A stretch of DNA of 64,000 bases from a virus (Duplodnaviria > Caudoviricetes): the IMG/VR virus record IMGVR_UViG_2775507244_000004. The stretch is one strand, 5' to 3'. Below the pieces are notes generated by a model. It saw only the letters and a program-made list of their open reading frames with translations. It searched no databases and had not been told where the DNA came from. Within the stretch, counting starts at the first letter, position 1; each line of letters starts with the position of its first letter. The translations under genes and the position numbers were made by a program. Positions 3,272 to 27,871 of the stretch are shown one piece after another.

Positions 3272-5073
3272 GCTGCCTCCAGGGCTTGCTGGTTGGTGTG
3301 GGTGGCAATCAGGGTGCCGCGCTCGATCCAGTGACTTGCGATATGCGCCGGCAGTGCGGCGGCCGCCGGGGCGCTCTTGAGCGTCGCCAGCACGATGGCG
3401 GAGCCGATCTGCCCCGCCTCAGCCAGGTCAGAGAGCCAGAACAGCGCGTCCTCGCGGCCGGTGGCGTCCAGCACGTCCAGCCGATCCAGCACGACGAACC
3501 GCAGGCCTGAGAGCTGCGCAATCGTGAGCGCGATCAGCGCATCGGCACGCCAGCGCTCGCTTTCAGAGCACAGGCTGTAGGCCCGCCCCCCAACCGTGAT
3601 GAGCATGTCGGGACCGATGCGCGGTGGCTGCCACTGCGCGAGTGCTGCATGTTCGGCCAGCGTTGCGTTCAGCGGGTCCAGCGCTTCGGCGATCATCTCG
3701 GCCTGGATGCCGTCGGGCGATAGGGCGTCTGCGATGGCCAACCACTGCTGCACGTCGGCGTGGTGGCGGGCGGCGTCTTCGATCTGCTGGGCGCGGCGCT
3801 CGGCGTCTCCGGCTGCCTCACGGTACTTGCGCTCATCTGCGCGCCACTCGTCGCGCTTGGTGGTGAGTGCGCGCAGCTGCTCCTCGATGTCGCCGACGCT
3901 GGCCCGCGCTTCGAGCGGGGTCTTCTCGAGCTCGGAGAGTTCGGCGGCTGCAGCCTCTGCGGCGGCCAGGTCTCGGCGGGCGTTGGCGGCGCCGGACTCG
4001 GCCGTCTGTAGGCCTCGGCGGATCTCGTCGGCGCGGGCCGGGTCGCCGGGCTCCGTGTTCGGGTCACCGTGGAGCTTGCGGTACTCGGCGAGGTGGGCGT
4101 TTGCGCGGTTGGTGAGTTCGGGGTCAACGTCATCAGCAACTGCCACGAACTCCGCGGTTACGCTCGCCAGCCCACGCAGCAGGTACGAGCCGGGTGCGCG
4201 CGGGTCTTCGCCACCGCCGGCCGCCGCGAGCTGCGCGCGGCAGGCTTCGACGTTCTCCTCGGCGGTCTTGAGCCGGTCGCGGATGCGATCGGCCATCTTG
4301 GCCTGATCGCGCAGCCGTTCACGGCGGATCGCCTCGGCCTCGAATGCTTGGCGGGCGGCCCGCGCTGCGCCGATCTGCTGCTGCAGGCTGGCGATCAGCA
4401 CCTCGCACTCCCCAACTTGGGCGCGGGCATGGTCGGCCTTCTTCGCCGGGTCGCCGGATACATCAACCGCGGCCGGCTGCCAGCCTTCGGCCTTCTTGTC
4501 GCCGTAGGCTTCGCCGGTCACGGCCTTCCATGCACCGCGGGCCTGAGATGCCAGTTCCTTGGCGTGCTTCTCGCCCGCAGCGAAGCCAGCGCGCAGCACC
4601 GGCAGCACGGCGGAGATCTTCTGCTCGTCCAGGCCTTTGCGCGTCAGGCGCTCGCCAATGGCCTTGTGGCTGGAATCGATGCCCAGCAGGCTGAACAGGA
4701 AGGCGCGGCGCTCGGTATCGGTCAGACGTGCAAGCCGAGACGGGTCGAGGACGAAGGGGAGGGCTGCGTGTGGCTCGGTGCCGGCGGCGCCGTCGGTGAT
4801 CTTTCCGGCCTTGGAGATGGTGACTTCGAAGTCGCGCTCGTCGGTCTGCACGAACACCCGGGCGTTCGTCGCCCCTTCGCTGATGAGCGCCGCGGCTTCG
4901 CCCTTCTTCGAGATGCGGCACAGATCGGCGGTGAGCGCAAAGCTGATCGCGTCACGCAGCGACGACTTGCCGGTGCCGTTCATCCCGGACAAGATCGTCA
5001 CGGGCTGCATGAGCGGAAGGTCTATGGTTCGCGCGCCCAGAAAGTTCTGGACGGCAATGTGATGGATTTTCAT
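3268..5073 (-). CDS. SMC/Rad50/SbcC-like ABC ATPase
   Basis: Walker A GMNGTGKS, long coiled coil, signature-like LCSESE, Walker B-like VVLDRLD. Confidence 0.85.
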
Positions 5074-20779: not shown

Positions 20780-23023
20780 ATGCTCGCAGAACAGACCCAC
20801 ACCACCGACGAAACGGAACTGCAACCGGCCGACGCGCCGATCACCGTCGACGAGTTCGCCCAGTTCGTGCGTGAGGCGATCAACCAGCAACCCTGGCGCG
20901 CGAACGCGGACAAGGAAGCAGACTACGCCGACGGCAATCAGCTGGATAGCGAACTGCTGCAGCGGCAGAAGATGCTCGGCATTCCGCCGGCCAAGGAGAA
21001 CATCATCGGCCCGGCCATTCGCGCGGTGTGCGGCTACGAGGCCAAGACGCGCACGGACTGGCGCGTGACGCCCGACGGCGACCCGCAAGGGCAGGACGTC
21101 GCCGACGCGCTGAACTACCGGCTCAACCAAGCCGAACGGCACAGTCGCGCCGATCGCGCGCTGTCCGATGCTTTCCGATCTGCCGCGACCGTCGGAATCG
21201 GCTGGGTGGAGGTCACGCGCGCCTCGAACGCGCTCCAGTTCCCGTACAAGTGCCGCGCAGTCCACCGGAACGAAATCTGGTGGGACATGCAGAGCGTCGA
21301 GCCGGATCTGGAAGACGCCCGCTGGCTGTTCCGCCGTCGCTGGGTGGATAGGCAGCGCGCTGCGCGCATGTTCCCCGAGCACGCCACGATCATCATGCAC
21401 TCCGCGGACAAGTGGATTGCGGATCTGGCCGGCGAAATGCTCGAAGGCGGGCAGTCAACCGGGCTCGCCCAGGCCATCGACGCAGAGCGCGCATGGACCG
21501 TGCAGGAAGACAACTGGTACAACGACGAGAACCAGCAGGTTTGCCTGACCGAGCTCTGGTATCGCCGCTGGGCCGAGGTCACAATCCTGCGAGCGCACAC
21601 CGGCCGCGCTGTCGAGTACGACCCGAGCAACCCGGCCCACGATGCGATGCTGCATGCTGGGCGTGGCGTGCTGGAGCGCCAGATCATCCCGAAGATGCGC
21701 CGCGCCTACTTCATGGGGCCGCACTGCCTGCATGACGGCCCGACGCCGCACCCGCACCAGCACTTCCCCTACGTGCCCGTGTGGGGGAACCGCGAGGACA
21801 TGACCGGGATTCCCTACGGGCTCGTGCGCGACATGCTGTTCCCGCAGGACAACCTCAACGCCTCGATCAGCAAGCTGCGCTGGGGCATGTCGGCGACGCG
21901 CATCGAGCGCACAAAGGGCGCGGTCGCCATGACGGATGAGGTGTTCCGGCGCATGGCTGCCCGCGTCGACGCCGACATCACCCTAGATGCGGACCATATG
22001 GCCCGGCCCGGCGCGCGTTTCGAGGTCAAGCGCGACTTCCAACTGAATGCGCAGCAGTTCGATCTGATGAACGACTCGCGCCGCGCAATGGAGCGCGTCA
22101 GCGGGATCACGGCAGCCTTCCAGGGCCAGAAGGGCACCGCAGCATCGGGTATTCAGGAGCAGACGCAGCTTGAGCAGTCCCAGGTCGCCGTCGCCGATCT
22201 GATGGACAACTTCAAGGAAGCGCGGCGCATGGTGGGCGAATTGCTGATGTCGCTCATCATCACCGACATGGGCAAGGCCGAGCAGACCATCGTGATCGAG
22301 GGCGACACGCTCAATCCGCCGCGGACCGTCGTGCTGAATCACCCCGAGATCGATCCCGACACCGGCATCCAGTACCTGAGCAACGACGTGCAGCGCACCC
22401 GCCTGATGGTCGCCCTCGAGGATGTGCCCAGTTCCAGCAGCTTCCGCGCACAGCAACTGGCCGCACTGTCTGAGTCGGTGAAGTCACTGCCGCAAAAGCT
22501 TCAGACGGTCGTGATGCCGTTCATGATCGACCTCATGGATCTGCCGCGTAAGGATCAGATCGTGCAGGCCATTCGACAGGCGACGGCGCAGGCGGACCCC
22601 GAGCAGTTGCGCGAGCAGATCAAGCGCGAACTGATGTTCGAGCTCAAGGAGCGCGAGCTCGCTATCAAGGAATCCGAGAGCGAGGCCAAGATCAAGAAGC
22701 TGATGGCCGAAGCGGTGCAGACCGGCGTGCAGGCGGCATTCAGCGCGATGCAGGCCGGCGCGCAAGTCGCACACATGCCGCAGATCGCTCCGATCGCCGA
22801 CGTCGTGATGCAGGGAGCAGGCTACAAGCGCCCGAATCCGATGGGCGACGACCCCAACTTCCCGCAGCCGACCGCGCCCGCCGTCGCAGAACAGGCCCAG
22901 GCTGCGCCCGAGGTGCGGCAGAATACCAGCCCGACGTTCCCCCCGGTGCCGGACGAGGGCGCTTCGCCCATGGCAGGGATTGAGACGCCGGAGACGCGTG
23001 ACAATCTCACGGAACCATCGTAG
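20780..23023 (+). CDS. Portal protein (P22/podovirus-like)
   Basis: DYADGNQ, FPYVPVW...PYGLVRDMLFPQDNLN, ASGI; follows terL. Confidence 0.88.
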   Translation: MLAEQTHTTDETELQPADAPITVDEFAQFVREAINQQPWRANADKEADYADGNQLDSELLQRQKMLGIPPAKENIIGPAIRAVCGYEAKTRTDWRVTPDGDPQGQDVADALNYRLNQAERHSRADRALSDAFRSAATVGIGWVEVTRASNALQFPYKCRAVHRNEIWWDMQSVEPDLEDARWLFRRRWVDRQRAARMFPEHATIIMHSADKWIADLAGEMLEGGQSTGLAQAIDAERAWTVQEDNWYNDENQQVCLTELWYRRWAEVTILRAHTGRAVEYDPSNPAHDAMLHAGRGVLERQIIPKMRRAYFMGPHCLHDGPTPHPHQHFPYVPVWGNREDMTGIPYGLVRDMLFPQDNLNASISKLRWGMSATRIERTKGAVAMTDEVFRRMAARVDADITLDADHMARPGARFEVKRDFQLNAQQFDLMNDSRRAMERVSGITAAFQGQKGTAASGIQEQTQLEQSQVAVADLMDNFKEARRMVGELLMSLIITDMGKAEQTIVIEGDTLNPPRTVVLNHPEIDPDTGIQYLSNDVQRTRLMVALEDVPSSSSFRAQQLAALSESVKSLPQKLQTVVMPFMIDLMDLPRKDQIVQAIRQATAQADPEQLREQIKRELMFELKERELAIKESESEAKIKKLMAEAVQTGVQAAFSAMQAGAQVAHMPQIAPIADVVMQGAGYKRPNPMGDDPNFPQPTAPAVAEQAQAAPEVRQNTSPTFPPVPDEGASPMAGIETPETRDNLTEPS

Positions 23024-23028
23024 ACACC

Positions 23029-23058
23029 GAACAGCCCGTCAAGAGCGGGCTGTTCTTC
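23029..23058. terminator. Terminator after portal
   Basis: GAACAGCCCG...CGGGCTGTTC hairpin then TTC. Confidence 0.7.
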
Positions 23059-23241
23059 GATTAAGGCGCCACCTTCAGGTCAGTCGCCGGGGCCGCATTC
23101 GAAGCGGACATGCAACTCTTCGTTCTGTTTGGGGCGGTGAGAAGTGTCCCTGAACGGAAATTCAGCACTATATTTTGTATGGCAGAACGATTGATACACG
23201 AGGATTTTTGCAACCCTCTGTTTTTAAACTAATTTATTTTT

Positions 23242-23270
23242 TTGCGCTAGCGGCGAGTTAGCGCTATTCT
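23242..23270 (+). promoter_or_regulatory. Moron sense promoter P1 with palindrome
   Basis: TTGCGC-17-TATTCT after AT-rich UP-like tract; GCGCTA-N9-TAGCGC overlaps. Confidence 0.6.
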
Positions 23271-23281
23271 TCTGCTCGTTC

Positions 23282-23405
23282 AAAAAGCAAAACCCGAGCC
23301 AGCTTTTCATAGCAGACTCGGGTCTGAATTGGGTGTGCTGAGTTGCAGGTAGCGGTCTTCATGGTCATGAAGAGTTACCTGCGCTTTAAATATTTTCTCA
23401 ACAAC
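23282..23405 (-). ncRNA. Antisense sRNA 1
   Basis: Minus promoter TTGACG-18-TATAAT (23441-23412); internal stem 23345-23382; terminator hairpin 23292-23323 plus TTTTGCTTTTT. Confidence 0.7.
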
Positions 23406-23625
23406 CAAAGAATTATAGGGGGGTCATCGCTGTTTCGTCAAGGGTTTTCAGAGCGCACACCTAAGGGCGATCGCCTGCCCATTCTTCAATGGTAAGGACA
23501 GGTTATCCATAAGGCGTGCTTCCATCTGGCGGCAATCTGGTTTGTGCGGCTCGCTTCGTGCTCGAGGTGAATATGGCAGGCCGGGCGCAGCTAGTGTGAA
23601 TGGGATACGTGAGAGCGTCCGTAGG

Positions 23626-23654
23626 TTGACTGGTGTTATCTAAATGGATAAGAT
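23626..23654 (+). promoter_or_regulatory. Promoter of XRE/ImmA operon with palindromic operator
   Basis: TTGACT-17-TAAGAT; TTATC-N6-GATAA at 23636-23651. Confidence 0.7.
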
Positions 23655-23728
23655 CGTTGCCGTATGGAAAACATTGTGTGCTAAAAGGTTTTCCGAGAGC
23701 GCATGGTGTATGGCGAAAGGAGCCTGGC

Positions 23729-24106
23729 ATGAAACTCACACCGTTTGGAGAGTTGGCGCGCCAACTTAGGATGAAAAACGGCTTGACCTTGAAATCGATG
23801 GCCGAAGCAATGGGTATCAGTTCTGCGCACCTCAGTTCGATTGAGTTCGGGGAGAAGAAGCTGAACGACAAACATACCCAGTCGGCGCTGGACTATTTCT
23901 CCGTCTTGTGTAGCCCGGAGCAGCTAGGGGCGCTGCGGACCGCTGCAGATATGTCCAAGGATTTCGTGAGCACTGAGGCTCTGAATGGAGATGCGAAACA
24001 CTTGGTGGCAGCGTTCGCCCGCAGGCTTCAAGAAGGGGCCACCCCTTCTGACGAATTTACCCGGTGGCTATCGGAGCTGGATAAAACGGGAGACTCAAGA
24101 AAATGA
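23729..24106 (+). CDS. XRE-family HTH regulator
   Basis: FGELARQLRMKNGLTLKSMAEAMGISSAHLSSIEFGEK; AAGGAG RBS. Confidence 0.9.
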   Translation: MKLTPFGELARQLRMKNGLTLKSMAEAMGISSAHLSSIEFGEKKLNDKHTQSALDYFSVLCSPEQLGALRTAADMSKDFVSTEALNGDAKHLVAAFARRLQEGATPSDEFTRWLSELDKTGDSRK

Positions 24107-24696
24107 CAACGATTTGCGTCGGGGGGCGACTGAGATCCCCCACTGGCTACAAGGTTGCGCCGCAAAGTTATGCAAAGCTTGAGGCGATAGCGGACGAACT
24201 GAGGGGGGTGCTCCCCACTACACCCGGTAGTTCGATCCGCTTGGATTGTGTGCGGATTCTTGAAGAGCTGTTACCACACGCTGGCTACAAGTTGAAGGTC
24301 GAGGAGGTGGACAAAGTGCATGACTGCGCCGCCTTTGCGGTGCCACAGAAACAGTTGATCGTCTTCCGGGCGGATATCTACGATTTGGTCCATGAGGATC
24401 ATGTCTTTGGGCGCAGCACGGTTGTTCATGAGATGTCGCACATCGTACTGAACCACGCGCTCACACTCCAGCGAGGCGCTGGAGCTGAATCGCACCGGTT
24501 TTTCGAGGACTCCGAATGGCAGGCAAAGGCTCTCACCGCTGCGATCATGATGCCCATCGAGGCATGTAACTCGATTGCATCGGTCGCTGACCTCGCTGAG
24601 GCATGTGGAACGAGTGTTGAGAGTGCAAGTTATCGTCTAGCGCGGCTTGCGAAAGACGGCATTCTCAGGCGCCTGCCACACGGCCTAGGAGTGTGA
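24103..24696 (+). CDS. ImmA/IrrE-family zinc metallopeptidase
   Basis: RSTVVHEMSHIVLNH (HExxH), SEWQAKALTAAIMMP, C-terminal HTH-like LAEACGTSVESASYRL. Confidence 0.9.
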   Translation: MTTICVGGRLRSPTGYKVAPQSYAKLEAIADELRGVLPTTPGSSIRLDCVRILEELLPHAGYKLKVEEVDKVHDCAAFAVPQKQLIVFRADIYDLVHEDHVFGRSTVVHEMSHIVLNHALTLQRGAGAESHRFFEDSEWQAKALTAAIMMPIEACNSIASVADLAEACGTSVESASYRLARLAKDGILRRLPHGLGV

Positions 24697-24714
24697 GAGT
24701 GACCTTAACACTCC

Positions 24715-24825
24715 AAAAGAAAAGAGCCCAGAAGTGTTCCACCACTTCCAGGCTCCTTGGTAAGGCGAAAAAGGGTCTGCCTTACCTCTCTGACCGCACT
24801 TTGTCAAGAGTTGTCTTGGGGAAGA
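24715..24825 (-). ncRNA. Antisense sRNA 2
   Basis: Minus promoter TTGCCC-18-TACACT (24861-24832); stem GGTAAGGC/GCCTTACC 24759-24786; terminator hairpin 24724-24755 plus TTTTCTTTT. Confidence 0.65.
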
Positions 24826-24898
24826 CACTGAAGTGTAGTACTGACGAAGGCGCCAGGGCAAGTCAAAACCCTCTAACGTTCTATCGGAGGTGCCTATC

Positions 24899-25018
24899 AT
24901 GGCGTACCCCTTTGTTAAGGACGTCTTCGTGCGCGCATACCGCCGGTTCCGTTTCGGAAGGTGGGAAACGGTGGTTCAGCACTGGCGTTCGTCTCCTGGT
25001 CAACTCAGTCTCTTCTGA
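24899..25018 (+). CDS. 39-aa basic micro-protein ending in QLSLF
   Basis: GGAGGT RBS; MAYPFVKDVFVRAYRRFRFGRWETVVQHWRSSPGQLSLF. Confidence 0.75.
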   Translation: MAYPFVKDVFVRAYRRFRFGRWETVVQHWRSSPGQLSLF

Positions 25019-25045
25019 TTGATCCGGACGGCGAATAGCCGGCTC

Positions 25046-25144
25046 AAAGGAAAGGGCGCCCAAGCTGCAACTTGGGCGCCCCGAGGTAAAAGGGTACTGA
25101 ACCGACGGCCCAGTATCCCTCTCACGAATGCTTTGGCAAAAGCG
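25046..25144 (-). ncRNA. Antisense sRNA 3
   Basis: Minus promoter TTGCGA-18-TAGCAT (25180-25151); stem 25091-25120; perfect 11-bp terminator hairpin 25054-25081 plus TTTCCTTT. Confidence 0.65.
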
Positions 25145-25219
25145 AGCACTATGCTACGCCGTATTCGGCAGGTCTCGCAAGGTCGTGAGTGTTGATAGCG
25201 CCTGACCTGTGAGGTTTAT

Positions 25220-25366
25220 ATGGTACAGAGCGACCTTTTCGATCCCTCGGCTGAACAAGGCGATGTCATCTTCAGGATGACAATCCGCCTCAAGAACGGC
25301 AAGGTGATTCGTCGCGCAAACGGACGTCCGTTCAGGATCGTTGTCCGCCGCAAGCGCAACGACTGA
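25220..25366 (+). CDS. 48-aa basic micro-protein with N-terminal QSDLF
   Basis: GAGGT RBS; MVQSDLFDPSAEQGDVIFRMTIRLKNGKVIRRANGRPFRIVVRRKRND. Confidence 0.75.
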   Translation: MVQSDLFDPSAEQGDVIFRMTIRLKNGKVIRRANGRPFRIVVRRKRND

Positions 25367-25413
25367 TGGCCTGCAACACACGCCGAACTTGTTCGGAGCC
25401 TCAATGAGGCCAA

Positions 25414-25437
25414 GCCCGCCCCGTGCGGGCATTTTTT
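25414..25437 (+). terminator. Terminator closing the moron
   Basis: GCCCGC-N5-GCGGGC then ATTTTTT. Confidence 0.75.
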
Positions 25438-25504
25438 CGTGCCTAGATCTCACGACAGGCTGTTGAAAGCAAGAATGCGCGTAGCGCGACTACTCATTCC
25501 GACC

Positions 25505-25546
25505 CCCCTGTAGGGCTGGAGCTTCACGTGTTCGCCCAATGACACT
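25505..25546 (+). promoter_or_regulatory. Late promoter motif copy 2
   Basis: CCCCTGTAGGGCTGGA-20nt-GACACT before scaffold gene. Confidence 0.75.
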
Positions 25547-25586
25547 GCCTGCGCATTGTTGCAAGCAGCTTTGGAGAAGCGCGCAC

Positions 25587-26555
25587 ATGAGCATGACCGC
25601 CGCCGAACTTCTGGAGTCCGCCCTGGATGGGACGCTTCAGGAAGATGACGCACACACCGAGCAGTCGCACGCCGCCGTCACTGACGACGCGCCCGCTGCC
25701 GTCTCTACCGAAGGCCAAGACCAGCCGCAGGCCGGCGCCACCGAGACGGAAGTCGAGGGCGCACCGATCCTGAGCAAGTCCGGCGCCTACACGATCCCCT
25801 ACGAGAAGCTGGCCGAGGCCCGTAACGAGCGCAACGCATTGCGCGAGCGCGTCGAGCAGCTTGAGCAGCACATCGCAGGGCTGTCCTCGCAGCAACAGCA
25901 GAACATCGCAACCGCCCAGGCCGATGCACAAGACCGCGCAGCCGCCGGTCAAGGGCAGACCGCAGCCGATGCGAACCTCGCTGCCGCTACGCAGGCCATG
26001 GCCGAAGGTGTCGACGTGTCGATCTTCGGCGATTTCTCGGAAGAGGATCTTGCGAAGGGGGTGGCCGAGTTGAATCGCCGCGCAATGGCCCAGGTCGAGT
26101 CTCGACTGATGGCCGCGCTGGACGATCGCCTCGCCCCTCTTCGTGCCCAGGAAGCCAAGACCGCGACGAGCGCCCACTACGACGCCATCTACGCCGCCCA
26201 CAAGGACGCGGACGAGATCGTCGAGTCGGCCGAGTTCGCGTCGTGGCGCGACAGTCTGCCCGCATTCGCCAAGTCCGGCGTCGAGCACGCGCTGACCAAG
26301 GGCTCCGCGCAAGAGGTGATCGAGGTCTTCAACGCATTCCGCGCAACCAAGCCGCAGCAGCCCAGTACCGCACGCACCGCGCCGGAGGCGCCCGCCCTTC
26401 GCGTGCCCAACTCCCTGTCCGATGTGCCTGGAGCGGCGCCGATGGACGAAACGCAGCAGACCCTCGCCGCAGCCGGGAATGCAGCCGCATTGCTCGAACG
26501 CATGGGCTCCATGTCCTCGGACCGCATCGACGACCTGCTGGACAACCTCATCTGA
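25587..26555 (+). CDS. Capsid scaffolding protein
   Basis: Acidic N-terminus, TIPYEKLAEAR coiled coil; precedes capsid gene. Confidence 0.75.
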   Translation: MSMTAAELLESALDGTLQEDDAHTEQSHAAVTDDAPAAVSTEGQDQPQAGATETEVEGAPILSKSGAYTIPYEKLAEARNERNALRERVEQLEQHIAGLSSQQQQNIATAQADAQDRAAAGQGQTAADANLAAATQAMAEGVDVSIFGDFSEEDLAKGVAELNRRAMAQVESRLMAALDDRLAPLRAQEAKTATSAHYDAIYAAHKDADEIVESAEFASWRDSLPAFAKSGVEHALTKGSAQEVIEVFNAFRATKPQQPSTARTAPEAPALRVPNSLSDVPGAAPMDETQQTLAAAGNAAALLERMGSMSSDRIDDLLDNLI

Positions 26556-26575
26556 ACGCATAGGAGTCATTGAAC

Positions 26576-27871
26576 ATGACCACCAAGACCAACGTCCCGG
26601 CAACCGCCGCGGATAAGCAGCGCGTTCTCGCCGCGGGCCTCTTCGCCCAGTCGATGCAACGCAACTCCACGTTGGGCCGCCTGTCCGGTCCCATGCCCAA
26701 GGGCGAGGCGCGTGCCGGCGAGGTCGTGCGCAAGCAGACCTCCACCGACCTGCCGATCGTCAAGACCGTCGATCTGTCCCGCGGCAAGGGCGACGAGGTC
26801 GAGTTCCAGTTCCTGCAGCCGGTTGGCGCCTACCCGATCATGGGTAGCCGCACCGCGGAAGGGAAGGGCACCGGCCTCTCCTACGACACGTCGCGGGTTC
26901 GCGTGAATCAAGCCCGCTTCCCGGTAGATCTCGGCGACACCATGACCAGCCTGCGCTCGCCGGTGGACTTCCGCCGCATGGGCCGTCCGGTTGCGCAGTC
27001 GCTGATGGACAGCTACATGGACCAGTCTCTGCTGGTGCACATGGCTGGCGCGCGTGGCTTCCACGACAACATCGAGTGGCGCGTGCCGGTCGCATCGCAC
27101 CCCGAGTTCGCCGAGATCGCCATCAATGCAGTGCGCGCCCCGACGAAGAATCGCCACTTCATCGCCGACGGCACCAACGGCATCGCAGAGTTCTCGCAGA
27201 CGGGTGGCGTCGTGGATCTGGCGACGACTGACGGCCTGAGCATGGACGTGGTCGATTCCATTCGCACCGTGATGGAGTCGATCGCCCTGCCGCCGCCGGC
27301 AGTCAAGATCCCCGGCGACGTCGTGGCCGAAGACTCGCCGCTGCGCGTTCTCCTGGTTTCCCCTGCGCAGTATCACGCCTTCTCGCAAGATCCGAGCTTC
27401 CGCCAGTTCCAGGCCAATGCCCTGGCGCGCGCGGCCAAGGCCAAGAATCACCCGCTGTTCCTTGGCGAGTGCGGCCTGTGGAACGGCATCCTGCTGATGA
27501 AGATGCCCAAGCCGATCCGCTTCTACGCGGGCGACGCCCTGAACTACTGCGACAGCTTCACCAGCGAGACGGAATCGACCGCCACGGTCAACGCCAGCTT
27601 CGGCACGACCCATGCGGTCGACCGCGCAATCCTGCTGGGCGGCCAAGCGATCGCTCAGGCGTTTGCCGCATCCGGCCACGGTGGCATGCCCTTCTTTTGG
27701 AAGGAGAAGGAGTTTGACCACGACGACAAGATGGAGCTGTTGATCGGCGCTATCCAGGGCATCAGCAAGGTTCGCTGGCTGGTCGATCAGGGCAACGGCG
27801 AAAAGCACTTCACCGACCACGGCGTCGTCGCCATCGACACCGCCGTTTCCATCATCGGCGCTCGCAAGTAA
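26576..27871 (+). CDS. Major capsid protein (N4-gp56/DUF4043-like)
   Basis: DLSRGKGDEVEF, LLVSPAQY, NHPLFLGECGLWNGIL, RAILLGGQA, DHGVVAIDTA. Confidence 0.88.
   Translation: MTTKTNVPATAADKQRVLAAGLFAQSMQRNSTLGRLSGPMPKGEARAGEVVRKQTSTDLPIVKTVDLSRGKGDEVEFQFLQPVGAYPIMGSRTAEGKGTGLSYDTSRVRVNQARFPVDLGDTMTSLRSPVDFRRMGRPVAQSLMDSYMDQSLLVHMAGARGFHDNIEWRVPVASHPEFAEIAINAVRAPTKNRHFIADGTNGIAEFSQTGGVVDLATTDGLSMDVVDSIRTVMESIALPPPAVKIPGDVVAEDSPLRVLLVSPAQYHAFSQDPSFRQFQANALARAAKAKNHPLFLGECGLWNGILLMKMPKPIRFYAGDALNYCDSFTSETESTATVNASFGTTHAVDRAILLGGQAIAQAFAASGHGGMPFFWKEKEFDHDDKMELLIGAIQGISKVRWLVDQGNGEKHFTDHGVVAIDTAVSIIGARK

Follow-up and report, generated by a model that had tools for sequence, protein, structure and literature searches.

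Described Systems Resembling the Locus

Type I toxin-antitoxin systems typically combine a small toxin gene of under 60 codons, a long folded 5' leader that hides the ribosome-binding site, and a cis-encoded antisense RNA of about 100 nt that has its own promoter and terminator and pairs with the leader upstream of the start codon (PMC8309996; PMC5416894). Examples include hok/sok, ldr/rdl and aapA1/IsoA1, as well as the SOS-controlled tisB/istR-1 and dinQ/agrB, in which a stress-responsive repressor acts on the toxin promoter. Tandem cassettes and a home on prophages are further features of such systems, and most known toxins of this type are hydrophobic, membrane-active peptides. A second group of regulators pairs an HTH repressor with an HExxH metallopeptidase, as in ImmR/ImmA of ICEBs1, DdrO/IrrE of Deinococcus, and CapH/CapP, which control CBASS and other defence operons, including ubiquitin-like cargo, from a divergent position upstream (Lau et al., 10.1101/2022.04.27.489752). 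In temperate phages, short antisense RNAs limit synthesis of small phage proteins from regulatory islands, inside the late region, as in P22 immI (sar RNA/ant) and P1 (c4 RNA/ant). Finally, ribonucleotide reductase (RNR) promoters are controlled by NrdR through two partially palindromic 16-bp boxes 15–16 bp apart, in which C4, A6, A8, T9, T11 and G13 are conserved (PMC13584703).

Here we examined a prophage island in which elements resembling all of these appear side by side: a repressor-protease pair followed by two tiny, widely conserved basic proteins, each apparently held in check by its own conserved antisense RNA. We did not find this toxin-antitoxin-like design described.

A Low-GC Island Between the Portal and Capsid Genes

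We analyzed a 64,000-nt stretch of a Caudoviricetes genome (IMG/VR record IMGVR_UViG_2775507244_000004; hereafter the window), which derives from a P22-like prophage. GC content is 0.457–0.577 over about 23050–25450, against 0.60–0.69 on both flanks. This island lies between a P22-type portal gene (20780–23023, PF16510, E 1.5e-109) and a coiled-coil scaffold-like ORF plus a Phage_capsid_3 gene (26570–27871, E 3.3e-123). A terminator-like hairpin follows the portal stop codon (TAG, 23021–23023) at 23032–23059 on the plus strand (stem CAGCCCG/CGGGCTG, 23032–23052; tail TTCTTCG), although it was read by eye only and was not listed by our terminator scan. The island is closed by an intrinsic terminator at 25414–25440 (+), which the scan called at 25414–25430 plus a T-run (GCCCGCCCCGTGCGGGC followed by ATTTTTTCGT). 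The only Rfam match within 22500–26000 is a weak isrK-like hit (22.2 bits, gathering score 50), which we attribute to the terminator shape.

Four genes lie within the island, all on the plus strand: an XRE-family gene (23729–24106), an HExxH peptidase gene (24103–24696), and two micro-ORFs, m1 (24899–25018, 39 aa) and m2 (25220–25366, 48 aa). The observation made in the first-pass annotation, that an island with its own terminator carries an XRE-peptidase pair and two micro-ORFs behind leaders with convergent promoters and terminators, is confirmed by our analysis.

In the window alone, convergent signals are only modestly above chance. The scan found 3 promoter-like sites against 1.2 +/- 0.9 in shuffles, and 8 terminator-like sites against 3.4 +/- 1.9. 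It called minus-strand terminators at 24758..24721 and 25082..25053, and minus-strand promoters at 23441..23412 (11/12) and 25139..25112 (9/12). The case is carried by comparative data, which show a minus-strand promoter and terminator conserved at fixed positions in relatives of both micro-ORF leaders. The scan missed both conserved promoters of the window, and the second of them replaces the 25139 site as the homologous promoter.

The Repressor-Peptidase Pair

The XRE-family protein (125 aa) matches HTH_31 (30.3 bits, cut-off 27, E 5.4e-7), HTH_3 (28.9 bits, cut-off 23, E 1.2e-6) and the PADLOC capH profile (E 7.2e-6), consistent with a CapH/ImmR-like repressor. Its relatives at 43–56% identity lie next to ImmA relatives. 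A promoter-like site precedes the gene at 23626–23654 (+) (TTGACT-N17-TAAGAT, 9/12), and a small palindrome in its spacer, TTATC..GATAA, was read from the sequence and is inferred to serve as an operator.

The start of the putative peptidase gene overlaps the XRE stop codon (ATGA). The 197-aa product carries HEMSH at residues 109–113 and matches PADLOC capP (E 3.6e-8) and the phrog_87 metallo-protease family (E 3.2e-3), but its Peptidase_M78 score of 20.5 bits (E 4.3e-4) falls below the cut-off of 22, and no solved relative was found by sequence. The capP match covers only positions 19–156 of the 242-position profile, so that no counterpart of the C-terminal GAF-like sensor domain of CapP/IrrE was detected, and the C-terminal 40 residues give only weak winged-helix matches. 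The protein thus resembles the short ImmA form more closely. The nearest ImmA relatives (57–63% identity) stand before Multi_ubiq/E2 and JAB/ThiF operons, a class of cargo reported for CapH/CapP (Lau et al.). The capH and capP matches place the pair with the CapH/CapP-ImmR/ImmA kind of regulator. In contrast to the divergent CapH/CapP arrangement, the regulators here, and in the relatives L013–L019 among the loci fetched for comparison, point the same way as their cargo, which in the window consists of two micro-proteins with predicted antisense RNAs and not an enzyme system.

Two Conserved Micro-Protein Families

Both micro-ORFs belong to real protein families. Relatives of m1 were found in 120 of 135 fetched loci, giving 104 distinct sequences, nearly all with an ATG and a Shine-Dalgarno (SD) sequence. 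Differences among them are 0.337, 0.332 and 0.631 at codon positions 1, 2 and 3, respectively, as expected of a coding gene. m1 (core V.VR.Y.R.R.GRWE.V..HWRS.PGQ) matches phrog_21154 (E 1.5e-7). m2 (core VI[YF]RMTI..K.GKVIRR.NG.PF.I) matches phrog_4533 (E 1e-4) and has 28 representatives at E<=1e-3 among 1.84 billion, of which 27 are small proteins; relatives also occur in 16 viral loci and in Achromobacter phage CF418P1.

Neither protein is hydrophobic. Net charge is about +5 for m1 and about +7 for m2, and neither has a hydrophobic stretch. AF2 predicts a four-strand beta meander for m1 (core pLDDT ~95) and a beta fold for m2 (core pLDDT 92–95). Neither predicted structure has a fold match (best Foldseek E 3.9 and 2.1), and no match to Pfam or PADLOC was found for either family, so that toxicity is at present a guess.

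Structured Leaders and Predicted Antisense RNAs

The m1 gene of the window is preceded by a conserved, structured sense leader at 24721–24901 (+), comprising P1, P2, a closing stem, an GTCTTGGGGAAGAC hairpin and an anti-SD hairpin. An nhmmer search found this ~170-nt leader in 43 of 135 loci, always on the plus strand directly 5' of m1. A covariance model of the leader gave 33 plus-strand hits among 100 sources and scores 124.6 bits (E 1e-38) in the window, and no Rfam family matches. In the alignment used to assess covariation, 87.3% of cells are paired against 73.3% in shuffles (0 of 500 shuffles reach it), 39 of 46 pairs change on both sides, and slid controls reach at most 47.4% paired; however, this alignment was fitted to the model's structure, which inflates its pair counts. 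G.U pairs and folding energy place the middle helices on the plus strand (27 of 32) and hairpin P1 on the minus strand, where it is more stable in 28 of 32. Helix 10 pairs CCUCU-like bases with the GGAGG of the SD, with covariation and G.U pairs, and is also seen in the window's own fold, suggesting that the m1 leader keeps its ribosome-binding site closed.

On the opposite strand, antisense RNA 1 is predicted at 24712..24861 (-), with a -35 TTGCCC at 24861..24856, an 18-nt spacer, a -10 TACACT at 24837..24832, a transcription start near 24825, a terminator stem at 24758..24721 and a U-run to ~24712, giving about 111 nt (fold z -3.93). The -10 TAnnnT occupies the same alignment columns in 32 of 32 unique leaders, and a -35 TTG.. 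hexamer (TTGCC) lies at 16–18 nt in 26 of 32. Five of the six leaders with a poor -35 carry a compensating TGn extended -10, the exception being locus L027. Predicted RNAs are 90–111 nt, and independent scans of loci L024, L106 and L175 call the same signals. The conserved TA...T columns lie in or next to a sense-strand hairpin loop, so part of their conservation could serve the sense RNA.

Antisense RNA 2 is predicted at 25043..25180 (-), with a -35 TTGCGA at 25180..25175, an 18-nt spacer, a -10 TAGCAT at 25156..25151, a start near 25144, a terminator stem at 25082..25053 and a tail to ~25043 (about 100 nt; fold z -7.06). The same design occurs at the homologous position in 14 of 16 unique m2 leaders, always with an 18-nt spacer and with the -35 lying 38–55 nt upstream of the ATG. 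Both RNAs are predicted from conserved signals alone: the only transcriptome run holding any of the island is a metatranscriptome kept as contigs, which cannot show strand, ends or level.

The first-pass annotation also proposed a third such leader upstream of XRE. This unit (23280..23441, -) has a strong consensus promoter (TTGACG-N18-TATAAT, 23441..23412, 11/12), a predicted RNA of ~125 nt, a hairpin at ~23325..23292 followed by a U-run (23292..23282), and a stable fold (-44.2 kcal/mol, z -5.04, 0 of 200 shuffles as stable). However, it is not conserved in any fetched locus, and its candidate sense ORF (23361–23495) has no homologue and no Pfam match. It is specific to the window and rests on consensus matches and a fold only. 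The three leaders are not one repeated unit, as only the m1 leader of the window matches the m1 leader model.

A Copy of the Host Ribonucleotide Reductase Promoter

A feature absent from the first-pass annotation is that the island opens with a copy of the host RNR promoter. About 100 nt are 73–83% identical to the region upstream of the RNR large-subunit gene in nine genus relatives and in the host's own chromosome (locus L185), where the ORF matches Ribonuc_red_lgC (E 3.9e-87). We read the sense promoter as a -35 TTGCGC (23242–23247), a 17-nt spacer and a -10 TATTCT (23265–23270), with an A/T-rich tract upstream; this hexamer assignment is our own reading. An NrdR-box-like pair lies at 23165–23211 (+). 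Box 1 (23165–23180, GCACTATATTTTGTAT) has all six key positions (PMC13584703), while box 2 (23196–23211), 15 nt away, is degenerate, with three of six; the host RNR promoter shows the same scores. NrdR is encoded in the genome. In other loci, six strong tandem box pairs lie 263–1371 nt upstream of m1, and in total there are 7 sites against 1.7 expected from shuffles.

Association of the Cassettes with the Switch

The layout of XRE plus HExxH peptidase followed by micro-ORFs behind such leaders is conserved and recurrent, and each family recurs independently behind XRE-ImmA pairs. An ImmA-family ORF lies upstream on the same strand in 33 of 120 m1 loci, six further loci have a fused XRE-peptidase, and XRE plus ImmA lies upstream in 7 of 16 m2 viral loci. 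The switch is not obligatory, as no ImmA-family ORF was detected upstream in 81 of 120 m1 loci. In addition, no sense promoter was found between the peptidase gene and m1 in the window, so co-transcription is assumed.

Interpretation

Given these results, we favor, with moderate confidence, the view that the island is a prophage moron built from three layers: a CapH/CapP- or ImmR/ImmA-type switch, two cassettes built like type I toxin-antitoxin loci, and an upstream sense promoter copied from the host RNR gene with an NrdR box. In this view, XRE and probably NrdR would keep sense transcription low in the quiet lysogen, while constitutive antisense RNAs would pair with any leaky sense leader and the folded leader would block translation. 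DNA damage, ssDNA or a fall in dNTP pools, as happens on phage attack or prophage induction, would lead the peptidase to cleave XRE and would raise sense transcription through XRE-ImmA into m1 and m2. This would titrate the antisense RNAs and release the micro-proteins as effectors, most likely growth-arresting ones. The interpretation offered in the first-pass annotation, that cleavage of XRE raises sense transcription, overrides antisense RNAs and releases small effectors, is partly supported. Computation establishes the genes and families, the conserved leader structure, the conserved antisense promoter and terminator signals, the recurrent synteny and the RNR-promoter copy. That the RNAs are made, that the micro-proteins are translated, that the peptidase cleaves XRE and on what trigger, that derepression overrides the antisense RNAs, that NrdR binds and controls the promoter, and that either protein is toxic are all inferences.

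Compared with described type I systems, the cassettes differ in encoding basic, predicted soluble beta proteins and not hydrophobic helices, and the stress input would be an XRE/ImmA pair and an NrdR-type promoter and not LexA. The P22 and P1 immunity regions have no sequence or family relation to the island, which has two cassettes, a protease-repressor pair and an NrdR-type promoter. In contrast to described NrdR-regulon promoters, the promoter copy precedes a prophage island and not an RNR gene.

A less likely alternative is that the micro-proteins are not toxins but small phage regulators or counter-defence factors, for example nucleic-acid-binding proteins needed early after induction, with the antisense RNAs and folded leader only keeping them silent during lysogeny, as P22 sar RNA limits antirepressor synthesis. 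Both proteins are strongly basic, predicted to be soluble and without a membrane segment; they lie inside the late region of a prophage and occur in many viral contigs, and m1 is often followed by further small ORFs of varied families. However, m1 also occurs behind regulators whose close relatives control defence operons, a triple lock of repressor, antisense RNA and hidden SD is the usual sign of a harmful product, and we found nothing linking either family to a known anti-defence or regulatory fold.

It is improbable that XRE and the HExxH protein form a type II-like toxin-antitoxin pair of their own, with the micro-ORF cassettes as independent hitch-hikers. Xre-COG2856 pairs have reportedly been listed among candidate type II systems (PMC2701414), m1 occurs with several other upstream gene families in loci without ImmA, and in L024 a sense promoter-like site lies between the fused regulator and the leader. 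Yet two unrelated micro-protein families each recur directly behind XRE-ImmA pairs, the antisense terminator abuts the ImmA stop codon, the gap is a constant ~150–200 nt even where ImmA identity is only 25–27%, and CapH/CapP have been shown to be switches rather than toxins (Lau et al.). Equally improbable is that P1 is only a bidirectional terminator insulating the upstream gene and the leader a purely sense-strand cis-regulatory RNA (attenuator, thermometer or protein- or ligand-binding element) that alone controls m1 translation: although the sense structure covaries strongly, with many plus-strand G.U pairs including the anti-SD helix, and the same A-run plus hairpin follows ImmA in L013–L016, which have a different cargo and no clear antisense promoter by eye, a sense-strand role does not predict the invariant TAnnnT with its spaced -35 or compensating TGn, the unrelated m2 leaders show the same minus-strand promoter, and P1 is systematically better on the minus strand, where a U-run follows it.

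A broader reading, which we consider possible but doubtful, is that the cassettes represent a widespread, undescribed class of type I toxin-antitoxin-like modules with soluble, basic beta-fold toxins, recurrently plugged as effectors into sensors of phage attack, namely XRE-ImmA/CapP-type ssDNA/DNA-damage switches and NrdR-type dNTP-pool sensing. This would make them the smallest known effector arm of a CapH/CapP-controlled abortive-infection or prophage-protection system.

If confirmed, these findings would add a new leader/antisense RNA family and two new micro-protein families. More than 364 m1 relatives were found in a single metagenome scan, a lower bound. Gene callers mostly miss these genes; a collection of 5.8 billion proteins returned only one m1 relative. 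The range of antisense-gated "toxins" would extend from membrane peptides to basic soluble micro-proteins, and CapH/CapP-type switches, and possibly NrdR, would be shown to drive very small effectors. The recurrent NrdR boxes upstream of m1 are an unexpected regulatory link in this respect. This would give a simple, testable model of how a prophage couples DNA-damage and nucleotide-pool signals to a protective or suicidal response.

Genomic Setting of the Island

The window is part of a prophage in a complete 4.17-Mb genome. Between a P22-type portal gene (20780-23023, PF16510 E 1.5e-109) and a scaffold-like ORF followed by a Phage_capsid_3 gene (26570-27871), GC content falls from 0.60-0.69 to 0.457-0.577 over about 23050-25450. 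Within this island we found an XRE protein (23729-24106; HTH_31 E 5.4e-7; PADLOC capH E 7.2e-6), an overlapping HExxH protein (24103-24696; motif HEMSH; PADLOC capP E 3.6e-8) whose Peptidase_M78 score of 20.5 bits lies just under the cut-off of 22, and two micro-ORFs, m1 (24899-25018) and m2 (25220-25366). A clean terminator at 25414-25430 closes the island. The island that the first-pass annotation had described, with its XRE, peptidase and two micro-ORFs, is therefore correctly described. A DNA search of the island against 50,697 phage records returned no match, and a search of the ImmA protein against viral contigs gave no confirmed relative.

Possible operators for XRE were also seen in the sequence. 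A direct repeat of a GGTTTTC(C)(A)GAGCGCA-like motif occurs at 23445-23463 and 23686-23704, with one copy just upstream of the XRE start, and the inverted repeat GGAAAAC-N15-GTTTTCC lies at about 23667-23695.

The Micro-ORFs Are Conserved Genes

Both micro-ORFs match PHROG families of unknown function (phrog_21154 E 1.5e-7 for m1; phrog_4533 E 1e-4 for m2). Relatives of m1 were recovered from 9 of 401 genomes of the same order at strong scores (18 at E<=0.01), from 43 viral contigs, and from at least 364 metagenome stretches, of which 80 were kept. By contrast, a search of a word-indexed protein collection returned a single relative (P0001). Of the 135 loci examined, our local model found m1 in 120, giving 104 distinct proteins, almost all with an ATG plus a Shine-Dalgarno sequence and the core V.VR.Y.R.R.GRWE.V..HWRS.PGQ. 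Across 96 sequences, differences per codon position were 0.337, 0.332 and 0.631, the pattern expected of a coding sequence under selection. A search for longer, fused forms of m1 found none, although this is weak evidence. In the m1 protein alignment (A8), most members have a conserved Cys before QHWRSHP and some (for example those of loci L043, L065 and L121) have extra Cys residues (C..C..C plus His), which hints at metal binding; the m1 of the window has Val at that position. Two m1 copies stand in tandem in one viral contig (L063:1883-2569).

For m2, we found 28 representatives at E<=1e-3 among 1.84 billion, of which 27 are proteins of 39-75 aa. The 28th (P0028), a 2376-aa cadherin/fn3 protein matching at E 2.3e-4, was discarded as spurious. 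Relatives of m2 also occur in 16 viral contigs and in Achromobacter phage CF418P1 (locus L020, 3402-3602), where the + strand homologue is not annotated in the record and a hypothetical CDS is annotated on the opposite strand over the same place (3435-3656).

AlphaFold models predict small beta meanders for both proteins, with core pLDDT above 90. Foldseek searches against the PDB gave nothing below E 1 for either micro-protein (best E 3.9 and 2.1), neither belongs to a Pfam or PADLOC family, and a search of the ESM Atlas with m1 returned only unnamed clusters.

A Conserved Structured Leader Precedes m1

The stretch between the upstream gene and m1 is more conserved than the neighboring proteins. 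The first seven examples show 71% mean column identity, although some of their ImmA proteins are only 25-52% identical to that of the window. Iterated nhmmer searches found this leader in 43 of the 135 loci, always on the + strand directly 5' of m1, and in the window only at 24722-24890. A covariance model built on the seven sequences found 33 + strand copies among 100 sources. It also gave six weak minus-strand hits (E 5.7e-4 to 3.4e-3), which overlap the palindromic first hairpin, P1, and were left out of the alignment used to assess covariation (A10).

RNAalifold on a plain MAFFT alignment (A6) recovered only 12 pairs because the arms were misaligned, so we used the 31-sequence, model-fitted alignment A10 with its controls. 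On A10, 87.3% of cells pair, against 73.3% in shuffles (0 of 500 shuffles reach it), and 39 of 46 pairs show changes on both sides, against 24.3 in shuffles. Sliding the partners drops pairing to 40-47%. As A10 was fitted to the model, these figures lean towards the structure, but the slid controls and the many compensatory types still argue for a real fold. Frequent G.U pairs on the + strand (for example 20 of 31 at one P2 pair) include the last helix, which pairs a CCUCU-like stretch with the GGAGG ribosome-binding site. This shows that the sense RNA uses the middle and 3' helices. By folding energy, the middle part is more stable on the + strand in 27 of 32 unique leaders, while P1 is more stable on the minus strand in 28 of 32. 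On that strand, the A-run that always precedes P1 becomes a U-tail.

Predicted Antisense RNAs of the m1 and m2 Leaders

Three invariant columns of the 32-sequence leader alignment (A123, T127 and A128 of the window row) read TAnnnT on the minus strand in 32 of 32 leaders. A TTG.. hexamer, mostly TTGCC[CT], lies 16-18 nt upstream in 26 of 32. Five of the six leaders with a poor -35 (those of loci L148, L150, L155, L157 and L017) carry a TGn extended -10, while L027 has neither a TTG.. -35 nor a TGn. A promoter predicts such compensation, whereas a sense-strand motif does not. A generic signal scan independently called the same minus-strand promoter and terminator in two of the m1 loci, L024 (10/12) and L106 (9/12). 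The predicted RNAs are 90-111 nt long. In the window, the -35 lies at 24861..24856, the -10 at 24837..24832, the predicted start near 24825, and the terminator at 24758..24721 with its U-run to about 24712; the predicted RNA folds with z -3.93. It would pair with the 5' two-thirds of the leader and not with the start codon, as is also the case in ldr/rdl, zor/orz and tisB/istR-1.

The m2 leader is not homologous to the m1 leader at the level that our models can see, but it has the same plan: an A-run, then a GC hairpin with a ..CCAAC loop, and a minus-strand promoter with a fixed 18-nt spacer whose -35 lies 38-55 nt upstream of the ATG. Of 16 unique leaders, 14 have this promoter at 8/12 or better, and 12 of them at 10/12 or better. 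In the window it reads TTGCGA(25180..25175)-N18-TAGCAT(25156..25151), with the predicted start near 25144, the terminator at 25082..25053, the predicted 3' end near 25043 and a fold z of -7.06. The only RNA dataset found to contain any of the island is a metatranscriptome kept as contigs (run X1), which holds two short pieces, 23200-23295 and 25219-25385. As these show neither strand, ends nor transcription, we do not use them as evidence, and the antisense RNAs are predicted from conserved signals alone.

Association With Repressor-Protease Pairs

An ImmA-family ORF lies upstream of m1 on the same strand in 33 of 120 loci, and six more loci carry a fused XRE-peptidase of 389-484 aa (Peptidase_M78 E 2.7e-6 in L024). 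Many contigs are cut short, so these counts are lower bounds. Other upstream neighbors recur as well, including an unannotated family of 270-285 aa (14 loci) and several smaller families. The pair is therefore frequent but not obligatory. Relatives of m2 stand directly behind XRE plus ImmA in 7 of 16 viral loci, and five loci hold XRE, ImmA, m1 and an m2-like ORF together; in Ralstonia phage YO034_1 and in locus L053 the order of the two micro-ORFs is reversed. Where ImmA is present, its stop codon lies within a few bases of the predicted antisense terminator. The gap to m1 is about 150-200 nt, or about 450-500 nt in loci where the gap is long enough for an extra small ORF. A third small-ORF family, of about 52 aa and rich in K, S and A, follows m1 in nine loci (L024:1697-1855, L105, L148-L150, L155, L156, L158 and L166). 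Tandem micro-ORFs after m1 are therefore a recurring theme, with interchangeable second members.

The closest relatives of the window's XRE-ImmA pair (ImmA identity 57-63%; loci L013-L016, for example L013:3814-6051) precede a Multi_ubiq/Prok-E2_E protein and a Prok-JAB/ThiF protein, which together form a ubiquitin-like putative defence operon. The ImmA stop codon there is also followed by an A-run plus hairpin. Lau et al. report this class of cargo for CapH/CapP and also show ssDNA-stimulated cleavage of CapH by CapP (10.1101/2022.04.27.489752). These relationships place the pair among stress-triggered derepression switches, although three defining features are lacking or uncertain: the orientation is co-directional rather than divergent, no GAF-like C-terminal part was detected, and the M78 score is sub-threshold.

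A Copy of the Ribonucleotide-Reductase Promoter Opens the Island

We also observed a feature absent from the first-pass annotation. Window 23160-23275 is a 73-83% identical copy of the promoter region that precedes the ribonucleotide-reductase (RNR) large-subunit gene in nine genus relatives (loci L004-L012) and in the host's own chromosome (locus L185, G000:C1:97000-99000; Ribonuc_red_lgC E 3.9e-87). This diverged copy carries a 16-bp NrdR-box-like palindrome at 23165-23180 with all six positions named as highly conserved in NrdR boxes (PMC13584703), and a weak second box (3 of 6) lies 15 bp away. The host promoter scores the same, and NrdR is encoded in the genome. We read the promoter as -35 TTGCGC (23242-23247) and -10 TATTCT (23265-23270).

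Across 540 kb of m1 loci, we found 7 strong tandem box pairs, against 1.7 in shuffles. Six of them (6/6 plus 5-6/6 key positions, 15-16 bp apart) lie 263-1371 nt upstream of m1 in other loci: L072:1076-1123, L090:2235-2281, L128:2024-2071, L132:970-1016, L140:1965-2012 and L151:2055-2101, of which L128 and L140 are near-duplicates. The seventh, at 21268 inside the portal gene, has low A+T and is taken as chance. In L151, a 57-aa ORF (L151:2130-2303; MATNGISGDD..GHWVKRDSNTGRFMDVK..) sits directly after the tandem boxes and before m1. Although NrdR binding is inferred from sequence alone, nucleotide-pool sensing may be a second, recurrent input to m1 cassettes.

Immediately downstream of the RNR-like promoter lie an A-run plus hairpin (about 23282-23325) and a minus-strand TTGACG-N18-TATAAT promoter (23441..23412, 11/12), next to one copy of the direct repeat described for the XRE region. 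Together they predict an RNA of ~125 nt from 23405 (z -5.04) antisense to the 5' end of the sense transcript. This unit was not conserved in any locus examined, and the overlapping 44-aa ORF at 23361-23495, considered as a third micro-ORF, has no homologue and no family. We therefore regard the unit, which the first-pass annotation had listed as a third leader of the same kind, as plausible but unsupported. The idea that the three leaders are copies of one unit was rejected, because only 24721-24901 matches the m1 leader model in the window.

Implications of the Arrangement

The interpretation offered in the first-pass annotation, in which protease cleavage of XRE raises sense transcription, overrides antisense RNAs and releases small effectors, is partly supported. 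Its architecture is well supported by our comparisons, whereas toxicity of the micro-proteins, cleavage of XRE and NrdR binding, like production of the antisense RNAs and translation of the micro-ORFs, are inferences, and the mechanism as a whole is plausible. Related sequences are not independent, so all counts across loci overstate the statistical weight. Literature searches for this layout or for the peptide motifs found nothing relevant in the paper library searched, supplementary tables excluded, including those of the CapH/CapP study, which could list similar cargo. Taken together, the results describe a real, conserved and apparently undescribed arrangement, in which a repressor-protease switch, and probably an NrdR-type promoter, sits in front of two cassettes built like type I toxin-antitoxin loci, with unusual micro-proteins that are basic and predicted to be soluble.
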